From sequence record NC_049852.1: a stretch of DNA of 51,643 bases; one strand, given 5' to 3'. The notes under the pieces were generated by a model that made no database searches, was not told where the DNA came from, and saw only the letters and a list, made by a program, of their open reading frames with translations. Made by a program: the position numbers and the translations under genes. This document shows positions 1-49,292 of this stretch, piece by piece; position 1 is the first letter of the stretch; the number at the start of each line of letters is the position of its first letter. This DNA comes from Escherichia phage egaa.

Positions 1-406
1 CAAGTGTTTCATATTCATCTGGCGAGTAGTTCGCTAGGTTTGGTGAGACCTTAAGCATCGACTCAGCAACCTGGCGTTTTGCTTTCGCTACAGCCTTCTC
101 AAGCGCGGCCTTGTTGTACACCCTGCGATTCGGCGCACTAACAATAGCCACATCAAAGTAATTTTCTCCGAAATATTCGCTATCAGGGCCGTAAGGTTTC
201 TTTGAGACTGAAACTCTCCCCTTCTCCGCCACTTCTGGAACGCGCCCCATAATCTGACGGATATATGATCCAGCATTGCTGGCTGACTTCTTGCCCTCCA
301 GGTGCTGCCTTACCCATCTTTCAGGTATCTGGATCGATTCGTGCAATCCAGATGCGAGCGCAATCGCAACCTTGCGAAGCTCATTTGTAAATACAGATTC
401 ACTCAT
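1..406 (-). CDS. hypothetical early protein, N-terminal part (ORF runs off window start; absent from ORF track)
   Basis: ATG at 406-404 preceded by AGGAGG (rc of 411-420); minus frame open to position 1 (about 135 codons, MSESVFTNELRKVAIALASGL...). In frame with the open reading frame at the window end if the sequence is circular. Confidence 0.55.
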   Translation of the reverse strand, partial: MSESVFTNELRKVAIALASGLHESIQIPERWVRQHLEGKKSASNAGSYIRQIMGRVPEVAEKGRVSVSKKPYGPDSEYFGENYFDVAIVSAPNRRVYNKAALEKAVAKAKRQVAESMLKVSPNLANYSPDEYETL

Positions 407-585
407 GCTTTATACCTCCTCGTGACTCAGTGACTGCATTATCATTTACCGCCACCTGGTGTGTCAACTGTTTTTTGTTGTTACTGGCGGTTTTCCGATG
501 TTATCTTTTCAGAACATAACAAGATTCGCGTTTTTTTTCTTATAAATCAATGTTGTTTTTGCGTGTTATCTAAAAAAGCGCGGAT

Positions 586-720
586 ACGCCCCCACCCCCA
601 TATACACACCAACCAATACACAACCACACACAACCACCAAAAATACATCAGACATCAATATGACCACATAACACACACAACAGATAGTAATTTATAGATA
701 CATATAAATAAATAATCCTT
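586..720. repeat. CA-rich, G-depleted low-complexity tract followed by AT-rich segment
   Basis: cccccaccccca...atacacaaccacacacaacc...; almost no G on plus strand; shares 13-mer atacacaaccaca with 22840-22852; approximate coordinates. Confidence 0.6.
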
Positions 721-729
721 ATTTTTTAG

Positions 730-820
730 TATGTTATATGGATTTCTCTTGTTATTTTTTGTTATGCGATTCCACGCCGGAATAACACGCATAACAGCGA
801 TAACAGAAGATAACAGTTGC
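730..820. promoter_or_regulatory. inverted iteron array: 3x TGTTAT then 4x (G)ATAACAG at 9-10 bp spacing
   Basis: tatgTTATatgg..cttgTTATttttttgTTATgcg ... aATAACAcgcATAACAGcgATAACAGaagATAACAGttg seen directly; helical-turn spacing typical of iterons or operators. Confidence 0.5.
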
Positions 821-1000
821 GCTCGCCAGGATTGCCGAAAAGGATGCGAGAGGATCGCGTTTCTCTATCCCCTCCACACAAAAAGTTAATCACTTGATTA
901 AAATTGATCAAACTCAAAGTCTCACAATCCAGGCGATCGCGAATGATTTATTCCTGTTATTCCTGATTAATGGAATAGGTGGAATAATAACCAGTAAGCA

Positions 1001-1045
1001 AATAGCACTTTTTGTTAAAACTGAATTGCCCTGATCGGGTACATT
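1001..1045 (+). promoter_or_regulatory. conserved 20-bp element AATAGCACTTTTTGTTAAAA + 21-nt spacer + TACATT (-10-like); putative early promoter
   Basis: exact 20-mer at 1001-1020; ATG of downstream gene at 1083; 11-bp inverted repeat ctgatcgggta/tacccatcag encloses the -10. Confidence 0.6.
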
Positions 1046-1082
1046 AGACACATCGAAACGAGATACCCATCAGGAGATAGCA

Positions 1083-1592
1083 ATGAACATCAGCAAAACC
1101 ACTTTCAACTTTGCAAAGCGTCACGGTCTGGATCTGACTGTTGAGGATTTTGGCGATGTTCTGCAACTCTGCATTTGGGAAGCGGATAACGATTGCGAGT
1201 GGCTTTGCTCTTATCGTATCAATTACGATTGCTTAACCTGGCACGACAATATCTATCTGCCGCAAGAAGTGAAAGAGGAATTGCCAGCAACCATCAACAA
1301 CGAAGTTTTTTTTGCGCAAAGTCCTGAAGTTTATTGCCGAGGAGATCAAGAAATGATTAGTGAAGTGGATTTTGAACTTGCAGAGGCCCAGGTAAGGGCC
1401 AAAAAGATGGGGTTGCGGATCTTGACGGAAACAGTCGAGTTCCCGTCGATGCCGTTCGCATCATTCCATAAAGTCACCGTATTAAGTCGCAAACGCGAGT
1501 GTAACGCTCTAATACCTGTCGGTGATGATAAACGCATGGCTAAATTCATTAACGAGTCATGTGATGTTCTGAAGGCTGTTAAACACGGTTAA
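1083..1592 (+). CDS. hypothetical early protein (169 aa)
   Basis: ORF track; RBS caGGAGatagcaATG; downstream of promoter element. Confidence 0.7.
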   Translation: MNISKTTFNFAKRHGLDLTVEDFGDVLQLCIWEADNDCEWLCSYRINYDCLTWHDNIYLPQEVKEELPATINNEVFFAQSPEVYCRGDQEMISEVDFELAEAQVRAKKMGLRILTETVEFPSMPFASFHKVTVLSRKRECNALIPVGDDKRMAKFINESCDVLKAVKHG

Positions 1593-1611
1593 CAACAAAG
1601 GGGAAATAAAG

Positions 1612-1878
1612 ATGGCGCGAATCAATGCACCTATTCCAGTTAAGCGCAAAGCACGTTTGCTCAATAACGGGTGTTACGCCCTGCGGCCTGCATTTAAGGA
1701 TCGCACCTTTCCGGTTATCGTTAACGTGTCGCACGTAAGCCGTAGCGGGAATCTGGCCTTTGTTAACGGTGAGGATCTGTCGGCGCTTGGATTCTATGGC
1801 GGTATTTACGGTGAGGCGCTTGGATTCTGGATTAAAGATCCGTTAACTGGCGAGCGCGAAATCGAATTCCTGGACTAA
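1612..1878 (+). CDS. hypothetical early protein (88 aa)
   Basis: ORF track; RBS gGGGAaataaagATG. Confidence 0.65.
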   Translation: MARINAPIPVKRKARLLNNGCYALRPAFKDRTFPVIVNVSHVSRSGNLAFVNGEDLSALGFYGGIYGEALGFWIKDPLTGEREIEFLD

Positions 1879-1922
1879 ATAGCACTTTTTGTTAAAACTC
1901 AATCCTCGCGATCCGATATATT
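1878..1922 (+). promoter_or_regulatory. conserved 20-bp element + 22-nt spacer + TATATT; putative early promoter
   Basis: aatagcactttttgttaaaa at 1878-1897, TATATT about 1917-1922; 9-bp inverted repeat aatcctcgc/gcgaggatt flanks -10 and overlaps RBS. Confidence 0.6.
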
Positions 1923-1955
1923 ACACACATCGACAACGAATGCGAGGATTTGAAA

Positions 1956-2108
1956 ATGGTTACTCTGATTACCTGGGAACACGAAAACAGCCAGCCGGAA
2001 GTGCGCGAATTTGAAACTGTAGCGGCATGTTATAACCTGGCGAAAAATGGCGGATTCTATAAGGCGCAAATTGTTAACGAATTTGGAGTTGTTGACTATG
2101 AGTTCTAA
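1956..2108 (+). CDS. small hypothetical protein (50 aa), not in ORF track
   Basis: ATG 1956 with RBS GAGGAtttgaaaATG, 58 nt after element; MVTLITWEHENSQPEVREFETVAACYNLAKNGGFYKAQIVNEFGVVDYEF; stop overlaps start of next gene. Confidence 0.5.
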   Translation: MVTLITWEHENSQPEVREFETVAACYNLAKNGGFYKAQIVNEFGVVDYEF

Positions 2109-2388
2109 GTTTTACAGCTATACCGATACAGTGGATTTTGAGGGGATACAATTGCCCCTCCCGAACATATACCGCTATATCACGCGTGACGAACGCGGAT
2201 TTATTGAAGCGTGGCGCTCAAAGCCTGTGCGTGATCTTGAGTTTGGCGGCTTCCGCTCTCTTGAGGGTGAGTTGCCGATCTGCTTCGGTCATCAAAGCGG
2301 TGAAAATCTTCCGGTTGTTGCGCGTCAGTATCGCAGACACAAGATCACAAGGGCACTTATCTCTTTAACTGGATCTGTTGTTGAATAG
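2098..2388 (+). CDS. hypothetical early protein (96 aa; internal ATG of track ORF 2047-2388)
   Basis: Track ORF start at 2047 lies inside upstream ORF; in-frame ATG at 2098 has GGAG 8 nt upstream; TAG stop lies inside next promoter element. Confidence 0.55.
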   Translation: MSSKFYSYTDTVDFEGIQLPLPNIYRYITRDERGFIEAWRSKPVRDLEFGGFRSLEGELPICFGHQSGENLPVVARQYRRHKITRALISLTGSVVE

Positions 2389-2428
2389 CACTTTTTGTTA
2401 AAAACGGTATGCGCCTGAATGGTATATT
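2384..2428 (+). promoter_or_regulatory. conserved 20-bp element + 22-nt spacer + TGgTATATT (extended -10-like)
   Basis: aatagcactttttgttaaaa 2384-2403 containing stop TAG 2386-2388; TATATT 2423-2428. Confidence 0.6.
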
Positions 2429-2459
2429 ACATCCATCGACAACGAACGAGGATTTAAAG

Positions 2460-2654
2460 ATGGAAAATCAAGTTGATGTTAAAGTTGTACAGCGTGAAAC
2501 CACTCACGAGAAAGGAATCTTTAAGAAAGGCGCTATCATCACCATTGATCTTGAGGATATGGTTGCGTATCACTCCGGCCTGACATGGAACGTTGTTAAA
2601 CATGGCAATGCTTTCAAACTGCGTGGATTCAATACTTTTATGGAGGTTGTGTAA
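2460..2654 (+). CDS. hypothetical early protein (64 aa)
   Basis: In-frame ATG (codon 18 of track ORF 2409-2654) with RBS GAGGAtttaaagATG; track start lies inside promoter element. Confidence 0.6.
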   Translation: MENQVDVKVVQRETTHEKGIFKKGAIITIDLEDMVAYHSGLTWNVVKHGNAFKLRGFNTFMEVV

Positions 2655-3037
2655 TGGCCTACACAAACAGCGATTTTAAAAACTCAACTGAAACAATCAA
2701 GGCACAACTCATTAAACAACGCGCTTATAGATTCTGGCTTGATTATCATGATCTAAGGAAAGAGATTGATAATATTATCAAGACTGGTAGCGCGTTCTGT
2801 TCTAACAGGACGGTTTGGCGCAATATGAATGCGCAGTACGGCCATGGAAAAATTCGTGTATTTGGTGAGGCTGTTGAAGCGTATGTGTTTAGCGCAACAA
2901 AAGCTGTAAGTTTTAACGTTGTTGGCATTAATCAGATGAGACTAATAATATTTCATAATTCCTGGATGATTCCCGTTTCTAATGATCATTATGGCGGAGA
3001 CGGAAAGCGAGCAAATCGCCATAGCTATTTCAACTGA
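2654..3037 (+). CDS. hypothetical early protein (127 aa)
   Basis: ORF track; start overlaps upstream stop (gtgtaATGg). Confidence 0.6.
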   Translation: MAYTNSDFKNSTETIKAQLIKQRAYRFWLDYHDLRKEIDNIIKTGSAFCSNRTVWRNMNAQYGHGKIRVFGEAVEAYVFSATKAVSFNVVGINQMRLIIFHNSWMIPVSNDHYGGDGKRANRHSYFN

Positions 3038-3079
3038 TAGCACAAATTGCTAAACAATATTTCTCAAACCTGATATAGT
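3037..3079 (+). promoter_or_regulatory. variant element ATAGCACAAATTGCTAAACA + 21-nt spacer + TATAGT
   Basis: variant of the 20-mer (GAATTG/AAATTG subfamily) directly after TGA stop 3035-3037; ATG of next gene at 3110. Confidence 0.5.
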
Positions 3080-3109
3080 TACCACACCAAATATAATGAG
3101 GATTGCATA

Positions 3110-3337
3110 ATGAAAGCCAAAATCACTAACATCATGCACACTGTTGATGCACATCACCGCGTCGCCATTAAGATGGATAAATCTTGCGGAATCAACCAGT
3201 TAACAATCACGAGCGGTAAAGGTGTGTTTGTTGTTGACTCGCATCCAGGTAGTAAAATCCGCAAATATACGCGCGAAGAATTGATTAAACTTCTTGAAGA
3301 GAACAGCATGTTCATTGAAAGTTGGAAGGCTATCTAA
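3110..3337 (+). CDS. hypothetical early protein (75 aa)
   Basis: ORF track; RBS aatGAGGAttgcataATG. Confidence 0.65.
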   Translation: MKAKITNIMHTVDAHHRVAIKMDKSCGINQLTITSGKGVFVVDSHPGSKIRKYTREELIKLLEENSMFIESWKAI

Positions 3338-3346
3338 TTAATAAAC

Positions 3347-3370
3347 GGGAGGTTTCGCCTCCCTTTAAAT
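3347..3370 (+). terminator. putative intrinsic terminator (GGGAGG-loop-CCTCCC + T/A tract)
   Basis: hairpin gggaggtttcgcctccc followed by tttaaat immediately after stop of 3110-3337. Confidence 0.45.
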
Positions 3371-3383
3371 AAAGGTGATAATA

Positions 3384-3497
3384 ATGACGAAATTTCTTGA
3401 TATTTTATTTGGTGTGATGATGAGCCTTGCTGGTCTTTTAGTTGTCACTGCTGTTATTGCTACTATTCTGATTGTTATCAAGGAGCTTATGAAATGA
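3384..3497 (+). CDS. small hydrophobic membrane peptide (37 aa), not in ORF track
   Basis: ATG 3384 after aaaGGtGAtaataATG; MTKFLDILFGVMMSLAGLLVVTAVIATILIVIKELMK; stop overlaps next start (ATGA). Confidence 0.5.
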   Translation: MTKFLDILFGVMMSLAGLLVVTAVIATILIVIKELMK

Positions 3498-3718
3498 GCC
3501 AGGACGGATTTTTTGAGCGACTGCAAAAAGCGGAAGATGCTGGGCTGAATAAAGAGGCTGCTCTTGAAGTTGCATATAAGATCAGGACACTTGATGATGC
3601 GTTGGGTGAAATGGATATGGAGCATGAATGCGGTGCTGCATTTGCAGATCCAACGATGATTGTTAATGATTGCGGCTGCAATTTTGATCCTAACTGTCCG
3701 CGATGCTTTCCGTTTTGA
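3494..3718 (+). CDS. hypothetical Cys-rich protein (74 aa)
   Basis: ORF track; RBS AGGAGcttatgaaATG; C-terminal CGCNFDPNCPRC. Confidence 0.65.
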   Translation: MSQDGFFERLQKAEDAGLNKEAALEVAYKIRTLDDALGEMDMEHECGAAFADPTMIVNDCGCNFDPNCPRCFPF

Positions 3719-3727
3719 GGTGATGAA

Positions 3728-4438
3728 ATGTATAAGGGTTTAATTTTCTCTTTGTTTGATGGATCTGGTAAAGCCGTTAAAGATTGGGCTGATGCTGGAT
3801 ATAAATGCATTTGCTTTAATTACGATGATGCTGATCACGGTGATTACCACTCAGTGCGCATAATCCATGACAATATCTTTTACGTTAACGCGTGGATTGA
3901 TGATCTATTCAAATATACCGCAAAACTTGAAAATTGGGGTAAGCCTGATTTTATTATGGCGTTCCCTCCATGCACTAACCTTGCAAATAGCGGATCTCGC
4001 CATTGGGCTAAAAAACGCATTGAGAATCCATCGTTCCAGGATGAAGCCGCCGACACTTGCAAAATAGCGGCGCAAATTGCTGATTATTTCGGTGTTCCGT
4101 ACATGATAGAGAATCCTGTAGGCAAGCTGTCAACGCTATGGCGCAAGCCTGATTATACGTTCCATCCGTGCGATTATGCTGGCTATCTGCCGGAAGATGA
4201 TAAACATCCCGACTTTCCTGATATTATTCCGGCACGGGATCGGTACTTTAAGAAAACATGCCTTTGGACTGGAAACGGATTTGTTATTCCTCCGCGCGCA
4301 ACAATCATCCCTAAAGATGGCGACAAGGATAATCCTGGTTGGGCCAAAACTGGCGGAAAATCGTCTCGCACAAAGATGATCCGCTCCCTCACACCGCGCG
4401 GTTTTGCTCGCGCCGTCTTTGAAGCAAACGCAAAATAG
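3728..4438 (+). CDS. putative DNA methyltransferase (cytosine-C5-like motifs)
   Basis: FSLFDGSG (FxGxG AdoMet motif), FPPC (Pro-Cys catalytic motif), MIENPVG (ENV-like); short for a C5-MTase, family call by motif only. Confidence 0.5.
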   Translation: MYKGLIFSLFDGSGKAVKDWADAGYKCICFNYDDADHGDYHSVRIIHDNIFYVNAWIDDLFKYTAKLENWGKPDFIMAFPPCTNLANSGSRHWAKKRIENPSFQDEAADTCKIAAQIADYFGVPYMIENPVGKLSTLWRKPDYTFHPCDYAGYLPEDDKHPDFPDIIPARDRYFKKTCLWTGNGFVIPPRATIIPKDGDKDNPGWAKTGGKSSRTKMIRSLTPRGFARAVFEANAK

Positions 4439-4478
4439 CACTTTTTGTTAAAAGCCAGGTGTAAAAGCCTGGCATAAT
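4434..4478 (+). promoter_or_regulatory. conserved 20-bp element + 22-nt spacer + CATAAT
   Basis: aatagcactttttgttaaaa 4434-4453 with TAG stop 4436-4438 inside; GC hairpin gccagg-tgtaaaa-cctggc in spacer. Confidence 0.6.
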
Positions 4479-4509
4479 CACTTCACCGAAACGAAAGGAG
4501 AAATAAACG

Positions 4510-4896
4510 ATGAAAGTTATCTGCAATAAAACCAACGTTTTGATGAGCGGTCGTTATAAAGCTGTATACGAAAAAATTGCTGGTAGCGATGATGTGATCG
4601 AGTTGGAACAATTCCAGGTAAAGAGCATTACAAAGGGTAGCAAGTGGCAAAACGCTGTTGAGTCTGACTATCGTCATATCAAGACAAAAACAATTAAATG
4701 CACATTTGTAGATCACAAGATCCCGTGCAAAAAGCATTTCAAAGAAGGAAAGCGCTACCAGATTGAGCAAGGGCGCGCGCTTGGTGCTGTTGCTGGTTAT
4801 GTTTTTGATGAAGCTGGCGACCGCTGGACGCTATACCGCGAAGAAGTAGGATTTTCCGCTGGTGGCTGTCATTTATTTGAGGCTATGTATAAGTGA
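4510..4896 (+). CDS. hypothetical early protein (128 aa)
   Basis: ORF track; RBS aaAGGAGaaataaacgATG. Confidence 0.7.
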   Translation: MKVICNKTNVLMSGRYKAVYEKIAGSDDVIELEQFQVKSITKGSKWQNAVESDYRHIKTKTIKCTFVDHKIPCKKHFKEGKRYQIEQGRALGAVAGYVFDEAGDRWTLYREEVGFSAGGCHLFEAMYK

Positions 4897-5114
4897 TCAA
4901 GGCTGAATATCGCTATAAGGTGACTCATTCAGCAACAAAAACCTTCAAGCATGGCGATATAGTCAGGCCAATAAAGAAAACGATGGTTGGATGGCTGATT
5001 GGTCTTTCTTACCACAAATCACTTTATTTTGATTTTGCTGATTCCGTAACCGCGCATTGCCATAGCGCAAGGGAACCAGAAAAAATCTTAGTTAGCATAG
5101 AGCGGATCAAATAG
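4893..5114 (+). CDS. hypothetical early protein (73 aa, GTG start overlapping upstream TGA)
   Basis: ORF track; GTGA overlap; TAG stop inside next element. Confidence 0.5.
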   Translation: MIKAEYRYKVTHSATKTFKHGDIVRPIKKTMVGWLIGLSYHKSLYFDFADSVTAHCHSAREPEKILVSIERIK

Positions 5115-5154
5115 CATTTTTTGTTAAATGCGGGTAGCATTGGTGCGGTATTAT
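5109..5154 (+). promoter_or_regulatory. element variant AATAGCATTTTTTGTTAAAT + 22-nt spacer + TATTAT
   Basis: 5109-5128; hairpin gcggtattattgccgc overlaps -10. Confidence 0.55.
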
Positions 5155-5183
5155 TGCCGCATCAAAAAAAGGAGTTATCATCA

Positions 5184-6767
5184 ATGAATTTTTCGTTTGA
5201 AACCAACAAACTAACACCAAAACAAATTATCGAATTAGCTGATGCACAAGGATTGTCTCCGGTGCGCGTGTCCATTCAGGCAAACGGATACCGTCAATCG
5301 TCCAGCTTTTGGGGTGAGGTTAATGATGTTAATAACGGAAATGATCGCTACCCTGTAATTTCTCTTGGCAATGATGTTGATGTTGTTGGTAAGTTGGCGC
5401 GCAACATTGCTCGCTCAGTTCAGTTCCCTGAATCATCGGCATATATGCATTTTATCGGCTGCGTGTCTGCTGCAATGCTTGGACGCTTCACGGTTGAGTA
5501 TCACGGAACGGATCAGCCGACCGCTCTTTATGTTGTCACAAGCCAGCCTCCTTCAACTGGTAAATCTGCCGTTAACAGCCTGGCACTTGCTCCAATGGTT
5601 GCAGAAGTGGAAAGAATTAACGATCAGCGAAAGAAGGAAAGAAAAAAGATTCAGGCAAAGTTGGCAGGTCTTGCAAAAGAGATGAAAAGCGAGCGCTCCG
5701 GCGCTGATATGGAATCTCTATACCAGGAGAAAGAAGATCTGGAAGAAAAACTGGAAAAGATGTGTGACATTGTTTTCCCTGTGTCCGACACCACGCCGGA
5801 AGGACTTGCAAGAATCAACAATCGCCAGGGTAACTTTGCTGTGATTTCAGACGAGGCAACGAGTATTAACAGCCTTTTAGGTCTGACATATGCTAATAGC
5901 GAACGTAAAACCAACAGCGAACTTGTGCTGAAAGCATGGGATCATGGTCATGTTTCTATAGCTCGTGCAAACGCTGACAACAATATGAGTTTTAAAGCTC
6001 TTGGCTGTATGGCGGTGATTGCCCAGGATGAAACAATCAATGCCATCATGGATGCAGGATCGCGCGGTATCGGTGTGAGTGAGCGTTATTTGCTTGTGCG
6101 TGAGGAATCATTTTTAGGTCGTCGAAAGTTTGTTGATGATAACGGTGATTCTACTTATGAGCCTGTTGATGGAGAACTGAAAAGTCAATATTTTAAGCTG
6201 ATCCATAACATCATGAGTGAATCAAACATCCAGCTTAAGATCAGTAAATCAGCAATGCGAGTTCTTAACATGGCTCGTCAGGAGATGGAGCCGCACCTTG
6301 CTGATGGCGGAAAGTATTCGCATACAATGCTGCGCGGTGCTCTTGGCAAAATGGATAAGCAGGTGATCAGGATTGCTTCGGTTTTGCACACTATCCGCAA
6401 CTGGTTTAATCCTGGTGGATACCCTCAGAAGTCGAAAGAGATTGAAGTTGAAACCGTTCAAGAAGCACTGCTGATGTTTAGCGAGTTGAGCAAAACATAC
6501 ATTAGCGCCGCCAACGCTTCTGGCTATGCTGGTGATGATGCTGAAATGGGTAAACTAATCGAGATTATCACTCGACACGGTAAGGCTAACAAGGGGATCT
6601 TGAATGTTCGCGCCATATATGAGGCTGCACGAAAAGTTAAGCCGTTTGTTGGCCAGGCTGGCGTAATGAAGCGTATGGAAACGCAACTGCTGCCGATGCT
6701 TGAAGAAAGAAATTATATTTGTGTGATTAATGGCGTTGTTTTTGTAAATCCAACATTGCTGGGGTAA
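5184..6767 (+). CDS. P-loop NTPase-like early protein (527 aa)
   Basis: In-frame ATG (codon 22 of track ORF) with RBS aaAGGAGttatcatcaATG; Walker-A-like QPPSTGKSA; coiled-coil KKERKKIQAKLAGLAKEMK; function unknown. Confidence 0.65.
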   Translation: MNFSFETNKLTPKQIIELADAQGLSPVRVSIQANGYRQSSSFWGEVNDVNNGNDRYPVISLGNDVDVVGKLARNIARSVQFPESSAYMHFIGCVSAAMLGRFTVEYHGTDQPTALYVVTSQPPSTGKSAVNSLALAPMVAEVERINDQRKKERKKIQAKLAGLAKEMKSERSGADMESLYQEKEDLEEKLEKMCDIVFPVSDTTPEGLARINNRQGNFAVISDEATSINSLLGLTYANSERKTNSELVLKAWDHGHVSIARANADNNMSFKALGCMAVIAQDETINAIMDAGSRGIGVSERYLLVREESFLGRRKFVDDNGDSTYEPVDGELKSQYFKLIHNIMSESNIQLKISKSAMRVLNMARQEMEPHLADGGKYSHTMLRGALGKMDKQVIRIASVLHTIRNWFNPGGYPQKSKEIEVETVQEALLMFSELSKTYISAANASGYAGDDAEMGKLIEIITRHGKANKGILNVRAIYEAARKVKPFVGQAGVMKRMETQLLPMLEERNYICVINGVVFVNPTLLG

Positions 6768-6769
6768 TT

Positions 6770-7162
6770 ATGTTTCTTCTGGATCTGTATCGCTGGTGTG
6801 AGTCATTCGAATGGTTTACGCGTCAACATATAGCAAAATTTATCTTTCAGCATAGAGAATGTGAGCGGCTCGCAAGGGCCGCAGGATTTACGCCGAGAAT
6901 GTTTGCTACTGCCGTTTCAAAAGAGTTTTGCGCAAGAATGATGACCGCTGGTTATCTTGATGGAGTTGGTGGAAAGTTCTGGTGTAAGAAAGGATCCGCA
7001 AATCGCCCTTTCTCGTTTGAACTTTACAGCCTGGAAGGTATGCAAAACGAATGGGTTAGGGATGTTTTACGGATCGGAGAAATGAGCGATGAAGAACTGT
7101 TTACGTCAAATGCTAATAGACAAAATATTGAAGTTCTGCGCCGTAAGTTCAATCTCACATGA
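6770..7162 (+). CDS. hypothetical early protein (130 aa)
   Basis: ORF track; start 3 nt after upstream stop. Confidence 0.6.
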   Translation: MFLLDLYRWCESFEWFTRQHIAKFIFQHRECERLARAAGFTPRMFATAVSKEFCARMMTAGYLDGVGGKFWCKKGSANRPFSFELYSLEGMQNEWVRDVLRIGEMSDEELFTSNANRQNIEVLRRKFNLT

Positions 7163-7283
7163 AGACTTCATGCACGCAATGTTAACGCTAATTCATTCTG
7201 ACATGCGAGCGTTTAACATATCAGAGCATAATTTGTGTGATGAGGACGGCGTTTTGTTGGTTACTGTAAAGCGTATCGAATAG
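7089..7283 (+). CDS. possible overlapping small ORF (64 aa) ending inside promoter element
   Basis: ORF track; overlaps 6770-7162 by 74 nt; GGAG 10 nt upstream; its TAG is the TAG of the next element; true start uncertain. Confidence 0.3.
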   Translation: MKNCLRQMLIDKILKFCAVSSISHEDFMHAMLTLIHSDMRAFNISEHNLCDEDGVLLVTVKRIE

Positions 7284-7323
7284 CACTTTTTGTTAAAACT
7301 CCCGATCTCGTATCGGGTATATT
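7279..7323 (+). promoter_or_regulatory. conserved 20-bp element + 22-nt spacer + TATATT
   Basis: aatagcactttttgttaaaa 7279-7298; hairpin cccgat-ctcgt-atcggg in spacer. Confidence 0.6.
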
Positions 7324-7356
7324 TGTTTCATCGGAACGAATATGAGGATTTTAAAA

Positions 7357-7578
7357 ATGGCTATCAAAGTAACAAAGAAAGAGACAAAAATCATCAATGT
7401 AACTTTTGATGTTTTCAACGACAAAGGAACTGCGACAAGAGAAGATGGCAGCACGTTTGAAATAAATCGTTACGAATACAATGAAATGTTATGGGATATA
7501 AAGAAGAAAGGTGCTTACATTCTTGTCGAGAATGATTATAGCGGAAACAGCTTTCAAGATTTGATGGATGCACTATAA
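7357..7578 (+). CDS. hypothetical early protein (73 aa)
   Basis: In-frame ATG (codon 6 of track ORF 7342-7578) with RBS GAGGAttttaaaaATG. Confidence 0.6.
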   Translation: MAIKVTKKETKIINVTFDVFNDKGTATREDGSTFEINRYEYNEMLWDIKKKGAYILVENDYSGNSFQDLMDAL

Positions 7579-7581
7579 AAC

Positions 7582-7608
7582 AAAGGAGGCGTTAAGCCTC
7601 CTTTTTGT
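7582..7608. terminator. bidirectional intrinsic terminator between convergent genes
   Basis: aaaggaggc-gttaa-gcctccttt followed by tttgttg (plus) and tttgtttt (minus); spanin stop codon lies in the loop. Confidence 0.65.
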
Positions 7609-7990
7609 TGCCTTTGCGGTAGGAAAAGTAAAGCATTGACAAAAGACCGCTAAAAATTGCAGCGCAATAGATTATGGGATCGTACCACTTCCTTTGCTCA
7701 CCCTGCACAACCTGGATTTTATCAGCCTTGATGGTATTGGCCTGAATGGTTGACGTAGTGAAATCCTTCTTGCTGGAAGTGTCCACCTTATCAACCGCAG
7801 ATTCCTTTATTGTAGTTTCCTGTTTTGTGCTGGTGTCCTGCTTTGCGGTAACGCCAACGGTCTGCTTTACGTTCTCCGCTCCTGCCTGTGCTGTGATTTC
7901 CGGCTTACTACCGATTAATCCGGTCAGTGGCGTAACGCTTGAACATCCAGACAAAATAACAGCGATAGCGATTATTGATAACTTTCGCAT
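7592..7990 (-). CDS. unimolecular spanin (u-spanin; outer-membrane lipoprotein with C-terminal transmembrane domain)
   Basis: N-terminal lipobox ...AVILSGCSS, Thr/Lys-rich periplasmic linker, C-terminal hydrophobic helix YCAAIFSGLLSMLYF; directly downstream of endolysin as in phage T1 gp11. Confidence 0.7.
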   Translation of the reverse strand: MRKLSIIAIAVILSGCSSVTPLTGLIGSKPEITAQAGAENVKQTVGVTAKQDTSTKQETTIKESAVDKVDTSSKKDFTTSTIQANTIKADKIQVVQGEQRKWYDPIIYCAAIFSGLLSMLYFSYRKGNKKEA

Positions 7991-7992
7991 AA

Positions 7993-8481
7993 TTACAGAT
8001 CCTTAATGCAATATTTAAATTCCACCGCGCGGCGGTTGCGCAGTCCTTTAGACGTTTCTTTCTTTCCTGTTTTTGGATTGGTGTATTTTGTCCATCTCCA
8101 TAACTGATCGCACGCTTCCATATAACGACCGTTATTAATCAGCTTAAGCATGGTTGAATTTCTAAAAGCTCCAGTTCCAGCATTGTATGTGAATGAATAC
8201 ATTGCTGCGCGCATTGTATCAGGAATGTCAACCTTTACACGCTTATCAACTTCATCCTTTGCGATTTTGATATGCTTCGCCAGTAGTGCATCGCACTCTC
8301 TTTGTGTGTACGTTTTGCCTTGTATTACGTCAGGGCCAGTTATTCCGGCGCAAACCGTCCATACCCCAGCAATATCTTTGTACGGCTTATGTTTTACTCC
8401 TTCTATTTCCTCCAGTAGCGGAGAAGTAAGGGCAAGAGCAACGCCAAAAGCCGCAGCGGTCACTCTTTGTTTTATACTCAT
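7993..8481 (-). CDS. endolysin, T4-lysozyme-like (GH24), probable SAR (signal-anchor-release) type
   Basis: Catalytic E-x8-D-x5-T triad ([16 protein letters not shown]); weakly hydrophobic Ala/Gly-rich N-terminus [18 protein letters not shown]. Confidence 0.8.
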
Positions 8482-8696
8482 TATTTACCTCTGATCTCAA
8501 TAGCTTTCTTAATATCACCGCATTCAAGCGCGTCACGTAGCGCCTTACTATCACGCCAGCGAAGATAAGCGCCCCACATACCAAATGCAGCCATCAAAAC
8601 GAAGCTGGCTATTGCAATAGTTGTTTGACCAGTTACCGCGCCAGTTATTGACGCGCCGCCAGTGCCGGAAGTTGCAGCGTTTAAAAAATCTTTCAT
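8481..8696 (-). CDS. holin (possibly pinholin)
   Basis: 71 aa, hydrophobic core [29 protein letters not shown], charged C-terminus; immediately upstream of endolysin; RBS cAGGAGatctaATG. Confidence 0.65.
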
Positions 8697-10057: not shown

Positions 10058-10300
10058 TCATTTGTAGTATTTGCGCGGCTCGCGAATTTTCGCCATAGCC
10101 TCTTTGACATCAATTTTTGTTGGTATTGCTGGTACGCGATGCATCTTGCGCGGGCGTTCATTGAGAAATGTCATTTTGTCGCCGCTGATAATGCTTATGT
10201 CAGCAATATCAAAATATTTCGCTATCCTGGATATGTCTTCTGCGATCCCGCATTCCTTTGCGTGATCCCATACAGCCTGCCTACCTTGTTCAACCTTCAT
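10058..10300 (-). CDS. hypothetical protein (80 aa)
   Basis: In-frame ATG (codon 8 of track ORF 10058-10321, whose start is TTG); GGAGG 14 nt upstream; overlaps stop of upstream small ORF. Confidence 0.55.
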   Translation of the reverse strand: MKVEQGRQAVWDHAKECGIAEDISRIAKYFDIADISIISGDKMTFLNERPRKMHRVPAIPTKIDVKEAMAKIREPRKYYK

Positions 10301-10469
10301 GCTTATAATATGCCTCCGCAAATGCTAATGGGTAGTGACCATATGCTACGCGAAGTAGAATCATTGCAGCACCCCAATCAAGATGCATATTGTTTTTCGT
10401 TCCGCCTTTTACCGCCTCGCGTGCGGTTTGTTGTGCCTGATCAAATGCTTTTTTGCTGTATACTACCAT
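10290..10469 (-). CDS. small hypothetical protein (59 aa), not in ORF track
   Basis: ATG 10469 with RBS GAGGAaataaaaATG, 58 nt downstream of promoter element; MVVYSKKAFDQAQQTAREAVKGG... Confidence 0.5.
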   Translation of the reverse strand: MVVYSKKAFDQAQQTAREAVKGGTKNNMHLDWGAAMILLRVAYGHYPLAFAEAYYKHEG

Positions 10470-44532: not shown

Positions 44533-44678
44533 ATATTCACCTATAAAAAAGGCGATACGTCTTACGGTAAAAACCTGCATATCGCCGTTGTTGCGTGGCA
44601 ACCGCGCCACCCGTTCGGCACTAATGCCGCTCTTATGTAAACGCTGAATATGCTAACCAATCAGGAAATCGTTGTCAA
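44533..44678 (-). promoter_or_regulatory. non-coding region with sigma70-like promoter (TTGACA-17-TAGCAT) followed by hairpin + T6
   Basis: minus strand gaTTGACAacgatttcctgattggtTAGCATattc ... ggcgata-(22 nt)-tatcgcc TTTTTT just before RBS of 44299-44532. Confidence 0.4.
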
Positions 44679-44909
44679 TCATTCGCGGTCAAATGCGTTT
44701 CCCCATCTACCACGAAGATAACCACACAACCAGATGAATTTGGTAATTGTCAGCATTGGCGCAACTGGCTGATAATGTTCGGCAATAATGCCCTTCATGA
44801 CTTCATCAACATACTTCCCGCGCTTTTCAACATCCGCCTTCATTGCCTCGCCGCACTTCTTAGCCTGGCGTTTTGCAGCGTTGAATTGCGCCTCATTCAT
44901 TCCAAACAT
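44679..44909 (-). CDS. hypothetical protein (76 aa)
   Basis: ORF track. Confidence 0.55.
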   Translation of the reverse strand: MFGMNEAQFNAAKRQAKKCGEAMKADVEKRGKYVDEVMKGIIAEHYQPVAPMLTITKFIWLCGYLRGRWGNAFDRE

Positions 44910-45037
44910 TACAGACCTCTACCCTTCCACAAGTTGTACATTTCGAAATAGTGAATTGCTGTTTCAGTATCGCCGCGCTCTAATGCTTCCTCTTGCTTCT
45001 GTGCGCACCACTGCGACGGTTTTATGTAGCTATCCAT
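44909..45037 (-). CDS. small hypothetical protein (42 aa), not in ORF track
   Basis: ATG 45037 with RBS tAAGGTGAttcaATG; stop overlaps next start (TAATG); MDSYIKPSQWCAQKQEEALERGDTETAIHYFEMYNLWKGRGL. Confidence 0.35.
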   Translation of the reverse strand: MDSYIKPSQWCAQKQEEALERGDTETAIHYFEMYNLWKGRGL

Positions 45038-45049
45038 TGAATCACCTTA

Positions 45050-45092
45050 CCTAAAAAAAATGCCTCGTCAAAATGCGTCCTATTCGCTGTAT
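45050..45092 (-). terminator. intrinsic terminator closing the leftward early operon
   Basis: minus strand atgcctca-(22 nt)-gacgaggcat followed by TTTTTTTT. Confidence 0.55.
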
Positions 45093-45109
45093 GAGGCATT
45101 CAATTTTAA

Positions 45110-45424
45110 TTAAAAATCGTCGAGCAACTCACGAAAGTTGTTAAGCGTTGCAACCTTAGCGCAATCCCACTCCGTCGATCCAGCTTCTTCCCACGGAGAA
45201 CCAGGCCCGTGATTTGTCATGTCGTCGATTAGTGATGAAATTTCATCAACAACAATCTCTTTCAAATGCTCTCTGTGCTCTATGTCTTCCACTGGCTCAA
45301 AAGCCTGAATAACACCGCCTAAAACCTGTTGCTGGGCTTTTGCCTTGTCAAAATCATCATGAATGAAACGATGCTCTTTCTTGTTCTCGTTTGTCCCTAT
45401 CTGGTAGTAGTGAATGTAAATCAT
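45110..45424 (-). CDS. hypothetical acidic protein (104 aa)
   Basis: ORF track; ATGA overlap with upstream gene. Confidence 0.6.
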   Translation of the reverse strand: MIYIHYYQIGTNENKKEHRFIHDDFDKAKAQQQVLGGVIQAFEPVEDIEHREHLKEIVVDEISSLIDDMTNHGPGSPWEEAGSTEWDCAKVATLNNFRELLDDF

Positions 45425-45654
45425 AATCCTGCATCCTCCGCAGTCTCGTTTTTGCGCTTCCAGTCTTCAATAGCTTTCTGAATGTATCCTGCCTCGTTAC
45501 GCCAGGCGGCAGTTTCTGCCGCTCGCGTTGGTGCTGGTGTGAGTTGACGACAAATCTGATCCGCAACCTCACCCATAGCGCCTTCCATACCAAAGCCAGA
45601 AATGTAGCACATAACTTGATATGCTTGCTTCTCTGAAAGGTTAATCGTGATCAT
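45421..45654 (-). CDS. hypothetical protein (77 aa)
   Basis: In-frame ATG (codon 7 of track ORF 45421-45672) overlapping upstream stop (ATGA). Confidence 0.55.
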   Translation of the reverse strand: MITINLSEKQAYQVMCYISGFGMEGAMGEVADQICRQLTPAPTRAAETAAWRNEAGYIQKAIEDWKRKNETAEDAGL

Positions 45655-45863
45655 TCTTCTACTACCTCGCATTCGTCATGGTTTACGCCGATGTTATCAC
45701 CGATTCGAATTTCTTCTGTGTTGCGGATTGCTAACACGCAGTAAGAACCATCGCGAAAGAATCCGTCAACCTCTACAATGTCACCAACTTTGAACCCGCA
45801 TTGTTCAAGGGTAATGCTTCCGTCGTTGCGGTCAATGTCAACCCTGGTAATTCGAATTTTCAC
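45651..45863 (-). CDS. hypothetical protein (70 aa, GTG start)
   Basis: ORF track; RBS aGAGGAaataaaaGTG; 58 nt downstream of promoter element. Confidence 0.55.
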   Translation of the reverse strand: MKIRITRVDIDRNDGSITLEQCGFKVGDIVEVDGFFRDGSYCVLAIRNTEEIRIGDNIGVNHDECEVVEE

Positions 45864-45894
45864 TTTTATTTCCTCTGTTTCGCTTCAATGAGGA

Positions 45895-45940
45895 CACTTT
45901 AACAAATGCCCTCGCGGAAGTTTTAACAAAAAGTGCTATT
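45895..45940 (-). promoter_or_regulatory. conserved 20-bp element (minus orientation); -10 not clearly assignable
   Basis: rc of 45921-45940 = aatagcactttttgttaaaa overlapping the stop of 45939-46226. Confidence 0.5.
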
Positions 45941-46226
45941 AGCTCATGTAATAGATTTCATCGCGCACAAAATCGTCAAAATCAGATTGCGTTAATGGTC
46001 GATCCTCTAATGCTGCCTGCTCAATCATTTCAACCAGGGCGCAATCCATATCAAGGTAATGCGCATCAAGATCATACCATGAAGCCATTTCACGCGCCCA
46101 GGAGCGGCAATTCTTGAATCCGTAACGGCGGATACAGTTTGCTGTGTGAAATGAGTCATTCCAGCCACGCTCAAGCGCTGCCTTTTCGAATGCGTTAATC
46201 AACATTTTACGATTGCTTTTAGCCAT
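45939..46226 (-). CDS. hypothetical protein (95 aa)
   Basis: In-frame ATG (codon 9 of track ORF) with RBS aAAGGAGGaaacaaaATG. Confidence 0.6.
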   Translation of the reverse strand: MAKSNRKMLINAFEKAALERGWNDSFHTANCIRRYGFKNCRSWAREMASWYDLDAHYLDMDCALVEMIEQAALEDRPLTQSDFDDFVRDEIYYMS

Positions 46227-46269
46227 TTTGTTTCCTCCTTTTAGCGCCACCTGAGCGGCGCGGTTAACA

Positions 46270-46449
46270 TTACTTCTTTTTTCCGGTCAGCATGTAACGC
46301 TTTCCGTTTTCGAATCCATCACAATAGCCAGCATACCCGCCAGCCATGAAGATAATCAACCCGCCGATTGACTCAACAATGCCGCTATAATTATATGCCA
46401 GGTAGCAACCAGCGATAAGGGCAATAAAAATGATAATTACTCTTTTCAT
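46270..46449 (-). CDS. small membrane protein (59 aa)
   Basis: In-frame ATG (codon 8) overlapping upstream stop (ATGA); hydrophobic VIIIFIALIAGCYLAY and GGLIIFMAGGYAGY segments. Confidence 0.55.
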   Translation of the reverse strand: MKRVIIIFIALIAGCYLAYNYSGIVESIGGLIIFMAGGYAGYCDGFENGKRYMLTGKKK

Positions 46450-46709
46450 TCGTGATCCCACACATCGCATTTTTTGACAACCAGCAAACGCAGCTTGTAA
46501 GGTCTGAACTTGTGCAACTTTTTAGCGTACTCACGCGCTTCGCTGTAGCTATTGAACTCCATAGCCCAAAAGCCGAAAGCATCATCCGTCAGATATTCCC
46601 AATCCCCACTAATAACGCGGCGGCGTTGCAGGTAATAAATCTTACATTCTGTGCAAGCAACGATCCGGTATTCAGGTTTAAAGATTCGTTTTAGTGCATT
46701 AAAAACCAT
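46446..46709 (-). CDS. hypothetical protein (87 aa)
   Basis: ORF track; RBS GTGAGGGccgcaatATG. Confidence 0.55.
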   Translation of the reverse strand: MVFNALKRIFKPEYRIVACTECKIYYLQRRRVISGDWEYLTDDAFGFWAMEFNSYSEAREYAKKLHKFRPYKLRLLVVKKCDVWDHE

Positions 46710-46822
46710 ATTGCGGCCCTCACTGAATAAACAACTAAGAGAATCAAGAATAACACAATCATTATTTCATGAAAATCAAATGGCGGCTTTGGATTGGTTG
46801 CGTTGTTGTTATTTCCCAGCAT
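46691..46822 (-). CDS. possible small membrane protein (43 aa)
   Basis: In-frame ATG (codon 32) of track ORF 46691-46915, chosen to avoid overlap with 46809-47210; hydrophobic C-terminus IMIVLFLILLVVYSV; weak RBS. Confidence 0.3.
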   Translation of the reverse strand: MLGNNNNATNPKPPFDFHEIMIVLFLILLVVYSVRAAIWFLMH

Positions 46823-47210
46823 TTCGCGCAATCCCTTTGTACATTCTGTAAAAATTACTGCCAGGCTTTTTGAACTTGATCGCATTTCGAGCAAGTCGGC
46901 GCATACGTCGCGCATCGTATCGCGCTCGCTGAAATGGTGTTTTCATTGTCTTAACATGACAGCCGCGATGATCGCTGATTCGCTCAAGCTCAATCAAAAC
47001 TCCTTGAGTTGCCACTACGCAATAATAATCAAATCCAAGACGGCGAGTTATTATATAGCCATTCTTGATGCGTGGGCGGCGAAAGTCTTTGCTGTACCCG
47101 CGATAAATACTATCCACCGTAACAACCTGACCCTTGCTAACTCCGCAATATTTATCTGCCCAGGTTACGCGAAATTTTGTTCCAACGCGAATGTCGTTAA
47201 GTTCTAACAT
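46809..47210 (-). CDS. hypothetical basic protein (133 aa), possibly nucleic-acid binding
   Basis: ORF track; RBS GAGAGGActtgaaacATG; Arg/Lys-rich C-terminus RRMRRLARNAIKFKK. Confidence 0.6.
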   Translation of the reverse strand: MLELNDIRVGTKFRVTWADKYCGVSKGQVVTVDSIYRGYSKDFRRPRIKNGYIITRRLGFDYYCVVATQGVLIELERISDHRGCHVKTMKTPFQRARYDARRMRRLARNAIKFKKPGSNFYRMYKGIARNAGK

Positions 47211-47241
47211 GTTTCAAGTCCTCTCGTTGATTGGTGTTTGC

Positions 47242-47286
47242 ATTATAGCGAGGCATTGCGCCCCGCTTTTAGCAATTCGTGCTATT
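47242..47286 (-). promoter_or_regulatory. variant element AATAGCACGAATTGCTAAAA + hairpin + TATAAT
   Basis: rc of 47267-47286 incl. TAG stop of kinase gene; TATAAT = rc of 47242-47247; ATG of 46809-47210 57 nt downstream. Confidence 0.55.
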
Positions 47287-47872
47287 CAATCTTTGTGTGT
47301 TTCCACTGCACCGATTTGATGATCTCGTCAACAGTCTTTTCTGGCTCGCCATCAATCATTGTGAAGTCGTAATGCTTGACTCGTTGATGGTATCCGCTCA
47401 GGTCAATATAGTTTCGCGAATCTCCATCAAACGTGAATCCCTCGCGATGCAGTCGGCAAATGTGAACTTCATGGCCTGCCTTAACGAGCGGCTTGATTTC
47501 TTCAGGGAATCCGCCATCACTAATTACAACAGCCAAATCTCTGTACATCTCGTGTACTTGCTCAACCATGCGATTCCCAAAATATTGATCGCCAAAAGCT
47601 GGCTTCATAACTTCTTCGCTAATCCAGATCATGAATTGTCGCGGAGACTTGCCTTGCAAGATTGCTTGAGGCTTTTCTTTCTGCTCGCGGTCGTTATACA
47701 GATCAATGAACTCGTCATATCTGTAAACGCCAAGCATGGAGAATGCAATATCAAACATCGGCTGTTTAAACGACGCTTCAACCGCTGCGTAACGATGGCC
47801 CGTTAAGTATGCGGCAAGCGTATCTTTGCCAACTCCTGGCGGTCCGTTAAGGATGATAATGTCTCGTTTCAT
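47282..47872 (-). CDS. deoxynucleoside monophosphate kinase-like P-loop kinase
   Basis: Walker A ILNGPPGVGKDT; overall resemblance (recalled) to T4 gp1 dNMP kinase; in-frame ATG at codon 6 with GGAG upstream. Confidence 0.6.
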   Translation of the reverse strand: MKRDIIILNGPPGVGKDTLAAYLTGHRYAAVEASFKQPMFDIAFSMLGVYRYDEFIDLYNDREQKEKPQAILQGKSPRQFMIWISEEVMKPAFGDQYFGNRMVEQVHEMYRDLAVVISDGGFPEEIKPLVKAGHEVHICRLHREGFTFDGDSRNYIDLSGYHQRVKHYDFTMIDGEPEKTVDEIIKSVQWKHTKIE

Positions 47873-47873
47873 A

Positions 47874-48011
47874 TTAGTTGTCTCCATATCGGCTTGAATG
47901 TTTACCTGGGCGCTGTCGCTTTTTGCGATAGCGTTGATTCATCTCTTGGCGCTCGTGGTAGCTGTATCGCTTCTTTTTGGATACGATTTTTTCGAAGTTT
48001 CGCATCTTCAT
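47874..48011 (-). CDS. small highly basic protein (45 aa), not in ORF track
   Basis: Translated directly: MKMRNFEKIVSKKKRYSYHERQEMNQRYRKKRQRPGKHSSRYGDN; stop TAA abuts kinase ATG; weak RBS. Confidence 0.3.
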   Translation of the reverse strand: MKMRNFEKIVSKKKRYSYHERQEMNQRYRKKRQRPGKHSSRYGDN

Positions 48012-48066
48012 GATCTCATGTTGTTATCTCAACATAGCGCACTGCATGAATGCGCTATAGTAAGAG

Positions 48067-48252
48067 TCACCACTTAAAGCCGCTTTCATCCCGTACAATC
48101 TGGTAAAGCGCCACCCAAAACCACACAAACCAGAACATCAGAACAAGAGGCTGATCTTTATCAGTGCAATCACACTCTTTAACCAATGCGCGGAAGATGA
48201 ATAAACCTGAAATATAAAAGAAAACCACTAAAAATACAAGTAACCAAATCAT
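48067..48252 (-). CDS. small membrane protein (61 aa)
   Basis: Two hydrophobic helices (IWLLVFLVVFFYISGLFIF; LVLMFWFVWFWVALY); RBS AAGGAGtcaacaaATG; ATGA overlap. Confidence 0.6.
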   Translation of the reverse strand: MIWLLVFLVVFFYISGLFIFRALVKECDCTDKDQPLVLMFWFVWFWVALYQIVRDESGFKW

Positions 48253-48512
48253 TTGTTGACTCCTTCAATTACCAGCGTGTAAAGCAGAACTGGATTTTGC
48301 ATGTCGCTTCGGCGCGGCTCTCGTGGCGAATCTGGCCATGCGCATTTCCCGTTTGCCACAATATAACCCACCAGATCACTAAGTTTTGATATACCGTCTC
48401 GACTAATCACGTTGTATGCAACGTCTTCGCCGTCAATGGAATGGATAGCAAAGAAACTTGGCGCGCCGTCAATCTTGCCTACCGCTTTGAAAAACTCAAC
48501 TTTATTAACCAT
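48249..48512 (-). CDS. hypothetical protein (87 aa)
   Basis: ORF track; RBS aacGAGGAttaaatcATG, 57 nt downstream of element variant. Confidence 0.6.
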   Translation of the reverse strand: MVNKVEFFKAVGKIDGAPSFFAIHSIDGEDVAYNVISRDGISKLSDLVGYIVANGKCAWPDSPREPRRSDMQNPVLLYTLVIEGVNK

Positions 48513-48543
48513 GATTTAATCCTCGTTTGTTGTCGATGGGCTT

Positions 48544-48588
48544 ACTATACCGCAAGCCCGATAATCTGTTTTTGCAAAAAGTGCTACT
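48544..48588 (-). promoter_or_regulatory. variant element AGTAGCACTTTTTGCAAAAA + 22-nt spacer + TATAGT
   Basis: rc of 48569-48588 incl. TAG stop of small ORF; leader CATCGACAACAAACGAGGA conserved. Confidence 0.55.
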
Positions 48589-48745
48589 TACGAACGCAGA
48601 ATACTTCAACTTCTTTATCGTTATCTGACATATGCAAAATTACTTGCTCTCTCGCGGCCTGACATCTTGATTCACCGTGGAACTCGCGAGACTCAATTGC
48701 GGCTGAATTGTAGCTTGTGATAATCACAAATAGAATCCAGGTCAT
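48584..48745 (-). CDS. small protein (53 aa) with hydrophobic N-terminus, not in ORF track
   Basis: ATG 48745 overlapping upstream stop (ATGA) with RBS GGAGGAattgaaATG; MTWILFVIITSYNSAAIESREFHGESRCQAAREQVILHMSDNDKEVEVFCVRK. Confidence 0.5.
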   Translation of the reverse strand: MTWILFVIITSYNSAAIESREFHGESRCQAAREQVILHMSDNDKEVEVFCVRK

Positions 48746-49281: not shown

Positions 49282-49292
49282 TATCAAACCTA

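Follow-up and report, generated by a model that had tools for sequence, protein, structure and literature searches.

A 37-codon gene for a predicted membrane-helix peptide among the short open reading frames of the T1-like Escherichia phage egaa

The locus and its gene family

The window analysed here is the whole 51,643-nucleotide sequence of Escherichia phage egaa (NC_049852.1), which, to judge from its length, gene order and best matches, is a complete genome of the genus Hanrivervirus (Drexlerviridae, Tempevirinae), that is, of a T1-like siphovirus. An open reading frame of 37 codons at positions 3384 to 3497 was described in the original prediction as the hydrophobic member of a group of short ORFs missing from the ORF track. 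All of the genes flanking this focal ORF lie on the plus strand, and the features of the locus are as follows.

3110..3337, plus strand: 75-aa gene (VOG2803-type), the upstream bound of the slot that holds the peptide gene
3347..3363, no strand assigned: G+C hairpin GGGAGG-TTTCG-CCTCCC, between the 75-aa gene and the peptide gene
3372..3378, plus strand: Shine-Dalgarno sequence AAGGTGA, 5 nt before the ATG at 3384
3384..3497, plus strand: focal peptide gene, 37 aa, MTKFLDILFGVMMSLAGLLVVTAVIATILIVIKELMK; the same gene as pSf-1 gp23 and JakobBernoulli bas07_0056
3480..3485, plus strand: Shine-Dalgarno sequence AAGGAG of the downstream gene, within peptide codons 33-34 (K-E)
3494..3718, plus strand: Cys-rich 74-aa gene, highly conserved (76-95% amino acid identity across clades) and used as the synteny anchor

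The stop codon of the peptide gene overlaps the start of the Cys-rich 74-aa gene in an ATGA arrangement, and relatives keep equivalent GGTG or GAGGTGG sites before the ATG of the corresponding gene (family A in what follows). The codons AAG GAG at positions 33-34 are invariant or nearly so in the family alignment. Because the Shine-Dalgarno sequence of the downstream gene lies inside them, these two codons are doubly constrained, and part of the conservation of the last five codons (K-E-x-x-K) can likewise be ascribed to the AAGGAG site together with the ATGA start overlap. On the upstream side, the stem of the hairpin is kept among relatives and its sequence varies by clade (GGGAGG/CCTCCC, GGCGGC/GCCGCC or GGGCGGG/CCCGCCC); L012 and L013 lack the hairpin. 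Its probable role is that of a terminator or attenuator within the operon, or else of an RNA-stabilising stem.

The original prediction also invoked element promoters at the canonical distance, and this part of it could not be confirmed. Sigma-70-like sites are not enriched in bases 1-8000 (15 found, against 17.2 expected from shuffles), and the promoter scan places none just upstream of 3384, where the G+C hairpin is found instead. On the minus strand, a scan of 3300-3600 gave no promoter-like site, which is a weak negative. Rfam had no match to the locus or to the whole window, with gathering thresholds and equally with a limit of E <= 1.

Homology and synteny assign the focal gene to the pSf-1 gp23 family. 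The gene is annotated in phages pSf-1, JakobBernoulli, KarlJaspers, grams, BEK7 and Fulano1, and G29-2, herni, vojen, slyngel, aaroes and damhaus have it without an annotation, the last two in the form of a 33-aa variant. Even near-identical GenBank records thus differ in whether the 37-aa gene is called, as it is in pSf-1 and the BASEL phages. Every Hanrivervirus examined has the gene, with amino acid identities of 57-97% inside the genus, and so does a sister clade at 37-46% identity. Throughout the family the order is the VOG2803-type gene, the peptide and the Cys-rich 74-aa gene, with the peptide stop overlapping the ATG of the last. The annotated homologues pSf1_0023 (AGI61406.1), bas07_0056, bas06_0057 (KarlJaspers), grams_3 and FULANO1_57 share the position and the ATGA overlap, and are 57-81% identical in amino acid sequence to the window peptide. 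The window shares its allele with G29-2 and herni; in it, two glycines common elsewhere have been replaced (G14S and G24V).

Larger collections contain further homologues. A profile search of 5.8 billion proteins, for which the query was the peptide alignment with a 40-aa GTG-start version as its first row, recovered 36 homologous clusters of 33-54 aa with E values from 1e-6 to 5e-17. All 36 come from phage contigs that reach ~52 kb at most, many being full-length (~50 kb), and none has been named. An exhaustive HMM search across 1.84 billion representatives likewise recovered family A and nothing else. The focal peptide has no match in Pfam, PHROG, NCBIfam or PDB sequences; the family is missing from PHROG, a library that draws on many phage genomes. 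PADLOC gave no match for the focal peptide, nor for the second peptide family described below, and a search of the literature on small membrane proteins of Hanrivervirus and Drexlerviridae found no paper addressing the focal gene. The original prediction had named host takeover and anti-defence as frequent roles of small membrane peptides from early regions, and neither the database matches nor the papers found speak for such a role here.

Two records in this comparison deserve separate mention. MG065669.1 (L030) and MG065675.1, deposited as 'Campylobacter phage A123/A118' (UNVERIFIED, unannotated), belong to the T1-like Drexlerviridae and encode a family-A peptide of 41 aa, generated by a 12-nt duplication of the codons that contain the Shine-Dalgarno sequence. 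The attribution to a Campylobacter host looks doubtful. In pSf-1, the homologue of the Cys-rich 74-aa protein (gp22; 2996-3244 of L003) has a longer, divergent C-terminus ending in NCPDAFRFEVMKCIKV, and the methylase gene that follows gp22 has a shorter annotation, which suggests an indel or frameshift at the junction of the two genes.

Six short ORFs and the genome around them

The original prediction named six short ORFs, the focal one included, and all of them are found with the coordinates and lengths that it gave. It left unsaid that the last four are on the minus strand.

1956-2108, plus strand: 50 aa, Pfam DUF7170 / phrog_4653; Shine-Dalgarno sequence GAGGA
3384-3497, plus strand: 37 aa, hydrophobic, family A (the focal ORF); AAGGTGA
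10290-10469, minus strand: 59 aa, phrog_2180; GAGGAA
44909-45037, minus strand: 42 aa, phrog_1312; AAGGTG
47874-48011, minus strand: 45 aa, very basic, overlapping the start of a P-loop NTPase gene
48584-48745, minus strand: 53 aa, with a hydrophobic N-terminus, phrog_5579; GGAGGA

The six are indeed absent from the ORF track, because of its 60-aa cut-off; their absence is an artefact of that threshold, and as a discovery the claim does not stand. Short ORFs are also abundant by chance: the window contains 180 ATG-initiated ORFs of 30-59 aa in its six frames. The existence of an ORF alone is not beyond chance, and the six are distinguished by their intergenic position and by their conservation in relatives. 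Hydrophobicity places the 37-aa ORF fifth among the 180, and the other equally hydrophobic short ORFs are off-frame artefacts within large genes.

Initiation signals were part of the original case. A Shine-Dalgarno sequence lies 5-7 nt before the ATG in five of the six ORFs, among them the four that had been rated as the better supported (1956, 3384, 10290 and 48584). The exception is 47874-48011, which has no recognisable site upstream and had already been called weaker. The proposed ATGA/TAATG coupling can likewise be read from the overlaps: beside that of the focal ORF, there is an ATGA where the polynucleotide-kinase gene ends and 48584-48745 begins, and a TAATG where 44909-45037 ends on the next ATG.

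That these are genuine small genes agrees with public annotation, where one or more published relatives list each of the six as a 'hypothetical protein'. The first is annotated in G29-2, herni, pSf-1 (gp28) and JakobBernoulli, and matches DUF7170 with 99 bits (cut-off 27), residues 1-50 aligning to positions 1-50 of the 52-position profile. The ORF at 10290-10469 corresponds to JakobBernoulli bas07_0043 and to vojen_66; those at 44909-45037, 47874-48011 and 48584-48745 correspond to KarlJaspers bas06_0085, bas06_0075 and bas06_0072, respectively. Four of the six match families in a PHROG search, and a fifth (47874-48011) matches phrog_8176 weakly. Homologues that span the whole of this last ORF occur in 137 phage records, with identity falling to ~50% in Klebsiella phages, and the ORF is a real gene, its weak initiation signal notwithstanding. 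It scores 15.8 bits against Pfam Phage_1_1 (T7 gene 1.1 protein), which is under the cut-off of 21, and the likeness is one of size and basicity only. Small genes of this kind are common in the group (eight CDS shorter than 60 aa are annotated in the first 50 kb of JakobBernoulli), and because they are already in public annotations, the finding of the six is an ordinary one.

Adjoining the listed small ORFs on the minus strand, at 48067-48252, is a 61-aa ORF with two hydrophobic segments and cysteine; an annotation in the relative JLBYU09 around this region reads 'FeoB-associated Cys-rich membrane protein'. With this candidate, the phage may encode further small membrane proteins.

The left part of the genome (bases 1000-8000) is 99.2% identical to Escherichia phage vB_EcoS_G29-2 and 98.8% identical to phage herni, in both cases over the full length of the 7 kb, with weaker matches to pSf-1, JakobBernoulli and other members of Hanrivervirus. 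For bases 44600-49400 the top matches are grams and KarlJaspers (93-96%), and G29-2 and herni are both outside the 12 best-ranked records. On these matches the genome is mosaic, G29-2-like in its left region and grams/KarlJaspers-like at 44600-49400. The left region has one peculiarity of its own in ORF 2654-3037, where a TAG at position 2933 is CAG in the window and a single ORF of 127 aa results. In herni, G29-2, JakobBernoulli and pSf-1 there are two genes at this place, of 93 aa and 33 aa, joined by TAGATG (bas07_0059 and bas07_0058). The fusion could be a true read-through allele or a sequencing difference.

Selection on the focal reading frame

AlphaFold2 predicts the focal peptide, in keeping with its earlier description as hydrophobic, as one continuous helix over residues 2-36 (pLDDT 95.3). 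The helix has an apolar core of 26 residues (7-32), flanked by K3/D6 on one side and K33/E34/K37 on the other, and the KD value of the core is at least 2.4 in all members of the family. What one looks for in a single-pass membrane protein, namely 20 or more apolar residues in one unbroken helix between charged flanks, is thus present both in the sequence and in the AlphaFold2 model.

Synonymous constraint had been proposed as a check on the short ORFs, and for the focal ORF this check came out negative. Tree-based counts of 23.5 synonymous and 68.5 non-synonymous events give an omega of ~0.91, compared with ~0.16 for the upstream 75-aa gene and ~0.06 for the downstream 74-aa gene in the same genomes (Fisher P ~3e-12 for the difference between the focal ORF and its neighbours). 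A test for an omega well below 1 thus gives no sign of purifying selection on the residues of the peptide. Pairwise pN/pS does not discriminate the frame either, being 0.63 in the ORF frame versus 0.52 and 0.69 in the other two.

Taken alone, an omega of ~0.9 is the pattern of a non-functional or neutral ORF. The focal ORF might accordingly be a T-rich intergenic insertion, possibly arisen de novo, which is open and hydrophobic by chance, would be translated weakly or not at all and has no selected function. A very narrow distribution, the lack of any PHROG or Pfam family, the absence of the ORF from most T1-like phages and the 180 chance ORFs of similar size in the window would all fit such an origin. 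However, a neutral ORF would hardly be kept in every Hanrivervirus examined and again in a sister clade that has diverged to 37-46% amino acid identity, nor would one expect its Shine-Dalgarno sequence and ATG to be conserved among relatives, as they are.

The behaviour of the frame itself bears on this question. Conservation of the reading frame in relatives was the other check proposed, and here the result is positive: the frame is open in all 16 distinct sequences, and the +1 and +2 frames contain 1-7 stops in each. Length variants are without exception multiples of three (+3, -3, +12, -12 and an in-frame extension of ~40 codons in L101, described below), the 41-aa variants being produced by the 12-nt duplication of the AAGGAG element. 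These five independent in-frame indel events also argue against neutrality.

An open frame on the other strand raises the further alternative that the true feature of the locus is an antisense ORF (3365-3625, 86 aa), or else a structured non-coding RNA. The antisense ORF is present in the mechanical ORF list and its frame is open in 14 of the 16 sequences, but L009 and L011 each carry a stop in it. It also crosses the strongly conserved 74-aa gene, against the direction of flanking genes that are all on the plus strand, and is best seen as the usual shadow of an NTN-rich sense frame. An RNA feature is opposed by the Rfam result, negative at both thresholds. The stops and the Rfam result together exclude this reading, the chance of which we put as very slight indeed.

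In the core, between residues 7 and 32, every sequence lacks D, E, K, R, N, Q, H and P. Neutral evolution was simulated on an NJ tree from a consensus root, with 86 substitutions that followed the observed mutation spectrum; a Fitch-reconstructed root was discarded, since its nucleotide-wise tie-breaks place Asp and Pro codons in the root. Survival of all tips without a stop is not significant by itself (P = 0.23), which is what chance would allow. The complete lack of polar or charged core residues in all tips has a P of ~0.0009, and the combination of apolar core and stop-free tips a P of ~0.0002. Under neutrality, about 12 of the 16 tips should have gained a polar core residue, but the hydrophobic core has been kept in all. 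The open frame, the in-frame indels, the apolar core and the simulation argue that the selected property is an open, hydrophobic helix rather than a particular sequence, and a neutral origin is given only a small probability. Conservation along the peptide shows no significant helical periodicity (P = 0.38 at 100 degrees), and so does not point to any particular face of the helix as a site of interaction.

The slot, its other occupants and a possible role of the peptide

The distribution of the gene was followed in a survey of 62 T1-like loci from IMG/VR, anchored on the conserved downstream Cys-rich protein. Family A occupies the slot in seven of the 62 loci. A 40-aa hydrophobic ORF, MMNSVEKLIKILIAVFIFLDCLLIGGMAFLLFDEIWRSLL, which we call family B, occupies it in six, and the remaining loci are empty, including contigs that equal T1 (48,836 bp) and TLS (49,902 bp) exactly in size. 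When the slot is empty, the anchor gene stands directly behind the upstream gene or the hairpin, with a Shine-Dalgarno sequence of its own. The survey argues that the focal ORF is a dispensable, lineage-specific accessory.

These loci are also informative about a purely regulatory role. The focal ORF could be a coupling or leader ORF, translated only to bring ribosomes past the hairpin or to tune expression of the 74-aa gene, with a functionless peptide as its product. Several features of the locus are those that one might expect of such an ORF, namely the ATGA overlap, the location of the downstream Shine-Dalgarno sequence inside the ORF, the hairpin immediately upstream and a frame that survives all indels; the omega of ~0.9 would then mean that residue identity is irrelevant. 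However, the downstream gene can draw on a strong AAGGAG site of its own, 8 nt away, and in clades that lack the small ORF the 74-aa gene follows directly after the hairpin with its own site. Coupling is therefore unnecessary, and a pure coupling or leader role is disfavoured, because the downstream gene can be translated without the small ORF. Nor does coupling call for hydrophobicity, yet the core excludes polar residues (P ~0.001), and the two unrelated ORFs found in the slot are both hydrophobic helices. The maintained hydrophobicity and the unrelated hydrophobic ORF in the same slot weaken the coupling and the neutral explanations alike, and we consider a role in coupling alone improbable.

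Family B, which is found in the Klebsiella T1-like phages P-K7R and RCIP0096, resembles family A in its slot, in the order of hairpin, Shine-Dalgarno sequence, ORF and overlap, in its size and in its single hydrophobic helix; its dN is also raised, several-fold over that of its flanks. Homology between the two families was considered and rejected, as none is detectable (hhalign probability 3%). Family B differs from family A in having acidic C-terminal residues (DEIW), and some of its members have an Asp inside the hydrophobic stretch. In one family-B locus (L064/L027, IMGVR_UViG_3300015188_000018) the stop TGA at about 1499-1501 of L064 has become TTA, and the ORF consequently does not end at the ATG of the anchor gene.

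A further variant of family A, 73 aa in length, is found at 1827-2048 of L101, an 8.3-kb metagenomic contig (ENA ERZ1034973). It shares the hairpin, Shine-Dalgarno sequence and start of the window, continues through ~40 extra in-frame hydrophobic codons and ends with a 33-aa family-A peptide. The product would be a two-helix protein, or the ORF would contain two nested starts. In tblastn searches the extra helix has no match in isolated phages.

A broader interpretation of the slot is that it serves T1-like phages as a place where tiny transmembrane genes are born or exchanged. Unrelated hydrophobic mini-ORFs would have originated in it or moved into it on at least two occasions (family A, family B and the extra L101 helix). 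Their omega near 1, with hydrophobicity kept, might then reflect an arms race with a component of the host membrane, for example a membrane-bound defence effector or an exclusion target, or a recent de novo birth. We regard this as possible, though unlikely.

The comparison of the peptide with characterized small membrane proteins is instructive mainly for its architecture. Enterobacteria produce small single-pass proteins, such as AcrZ, MgrB, MgtS, KdpF and CydX, that act through their transmembrane helix. The focal peptide is like these in having 30-50 aa, one hydrophobic helix, short charged ends and no soluble domain; because it has no soluble domain, any activity of the peptide must come from the helix in the membrane. 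It is unlike them in being phage-encoded, in lacking any sequence similarity to them and in having no conserved helical face. The type I toxins (Hok/Gef, Ldr, TisB and Fst) also consist of a short hydrophobic helix with a charged tail, and in them generic hydrophobicity outweighs exact sequence, which is the selection regime that the focal peptide fits. However, the locus has no evident antisense RNA gene, and the focal ORF belongs to a sense operon, with coupling to the gene that follows. In searches against Hok_Gef, Ldr, TisB and Fst, the peptide has no Pfam match at E <= 1 and no NCBIfam match. The likeness to bacterial small membrane proteins and to type I toxins is thus one of size and architecture only.

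Phages themselves encode membrane proteins for exclusion or lysis timing, among them T4 Imm, Sp and RI, HK97 gp15 and the T1 holin with its single TMD. The focal peptide shares with these that it is phage-encoded, accessory, lineage-specific and, by prediction, membrane-spanning. Unlike the peptide, they are larger and have extramembrane parts, and their sequences are unrelated to it. A holin or antiholin function was considered and rejected: the lysis cassette (holin, endolysin and u-spanin) is at 7592-8696 on the minus strand, ~4 kb away and on the other strand from the focal gene.

We think it likely that all six ORFs are genuine, ordinary small genes, and that 3384-3497 is translated into a single-pass membrane-helix peptide that is accessory at the level of the genus. 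The course of events that we infer, from translation through membrane insertion to any cellular role, would be as follows. The 75-aa gene, the peptide gene, the Cys-rich 74-aa gene and a Dcm-like methyltransferase gene would be carried on one polycistronic message from the plus strand. Ribosomes would start at the ATG at 3384 by means of AAGGTGA and end on the ATGA overlap with the next gene, and the product would insert into the host inner membrane as a single-pass helix. Selection would act to keep an open hydrophobic helix, with the identity of its residues hardly selected, and the helix itself would exert a dispensable, membrane-level function on the host inner membrane or on a membrane protein. 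As to what that function might be, exclusion, host takeover or modulation of the host membrane, and lysis timing are examples offered as guesses.

The locus is only mildly unusual, in its near-neutral amino acid turnover with hydrophobicity kept and in the recurrence of unrelated mini-transmembrane ORFs in one slot. It does carry a lesson for annotation, in that an ORF threshold of 60 aa hides at least six real genes in a phage of ~51 kb. A filter based on dN/dS or synonymous constraint would wrongly drop the focal gene, which is kept by tests of frame, indels and hydrophobicity. For the biology of these phages, the focal gene encodes one more phage micro-protein, which would gain in interest only with the discovery of a membrane target or of a phenotype linked to defence.
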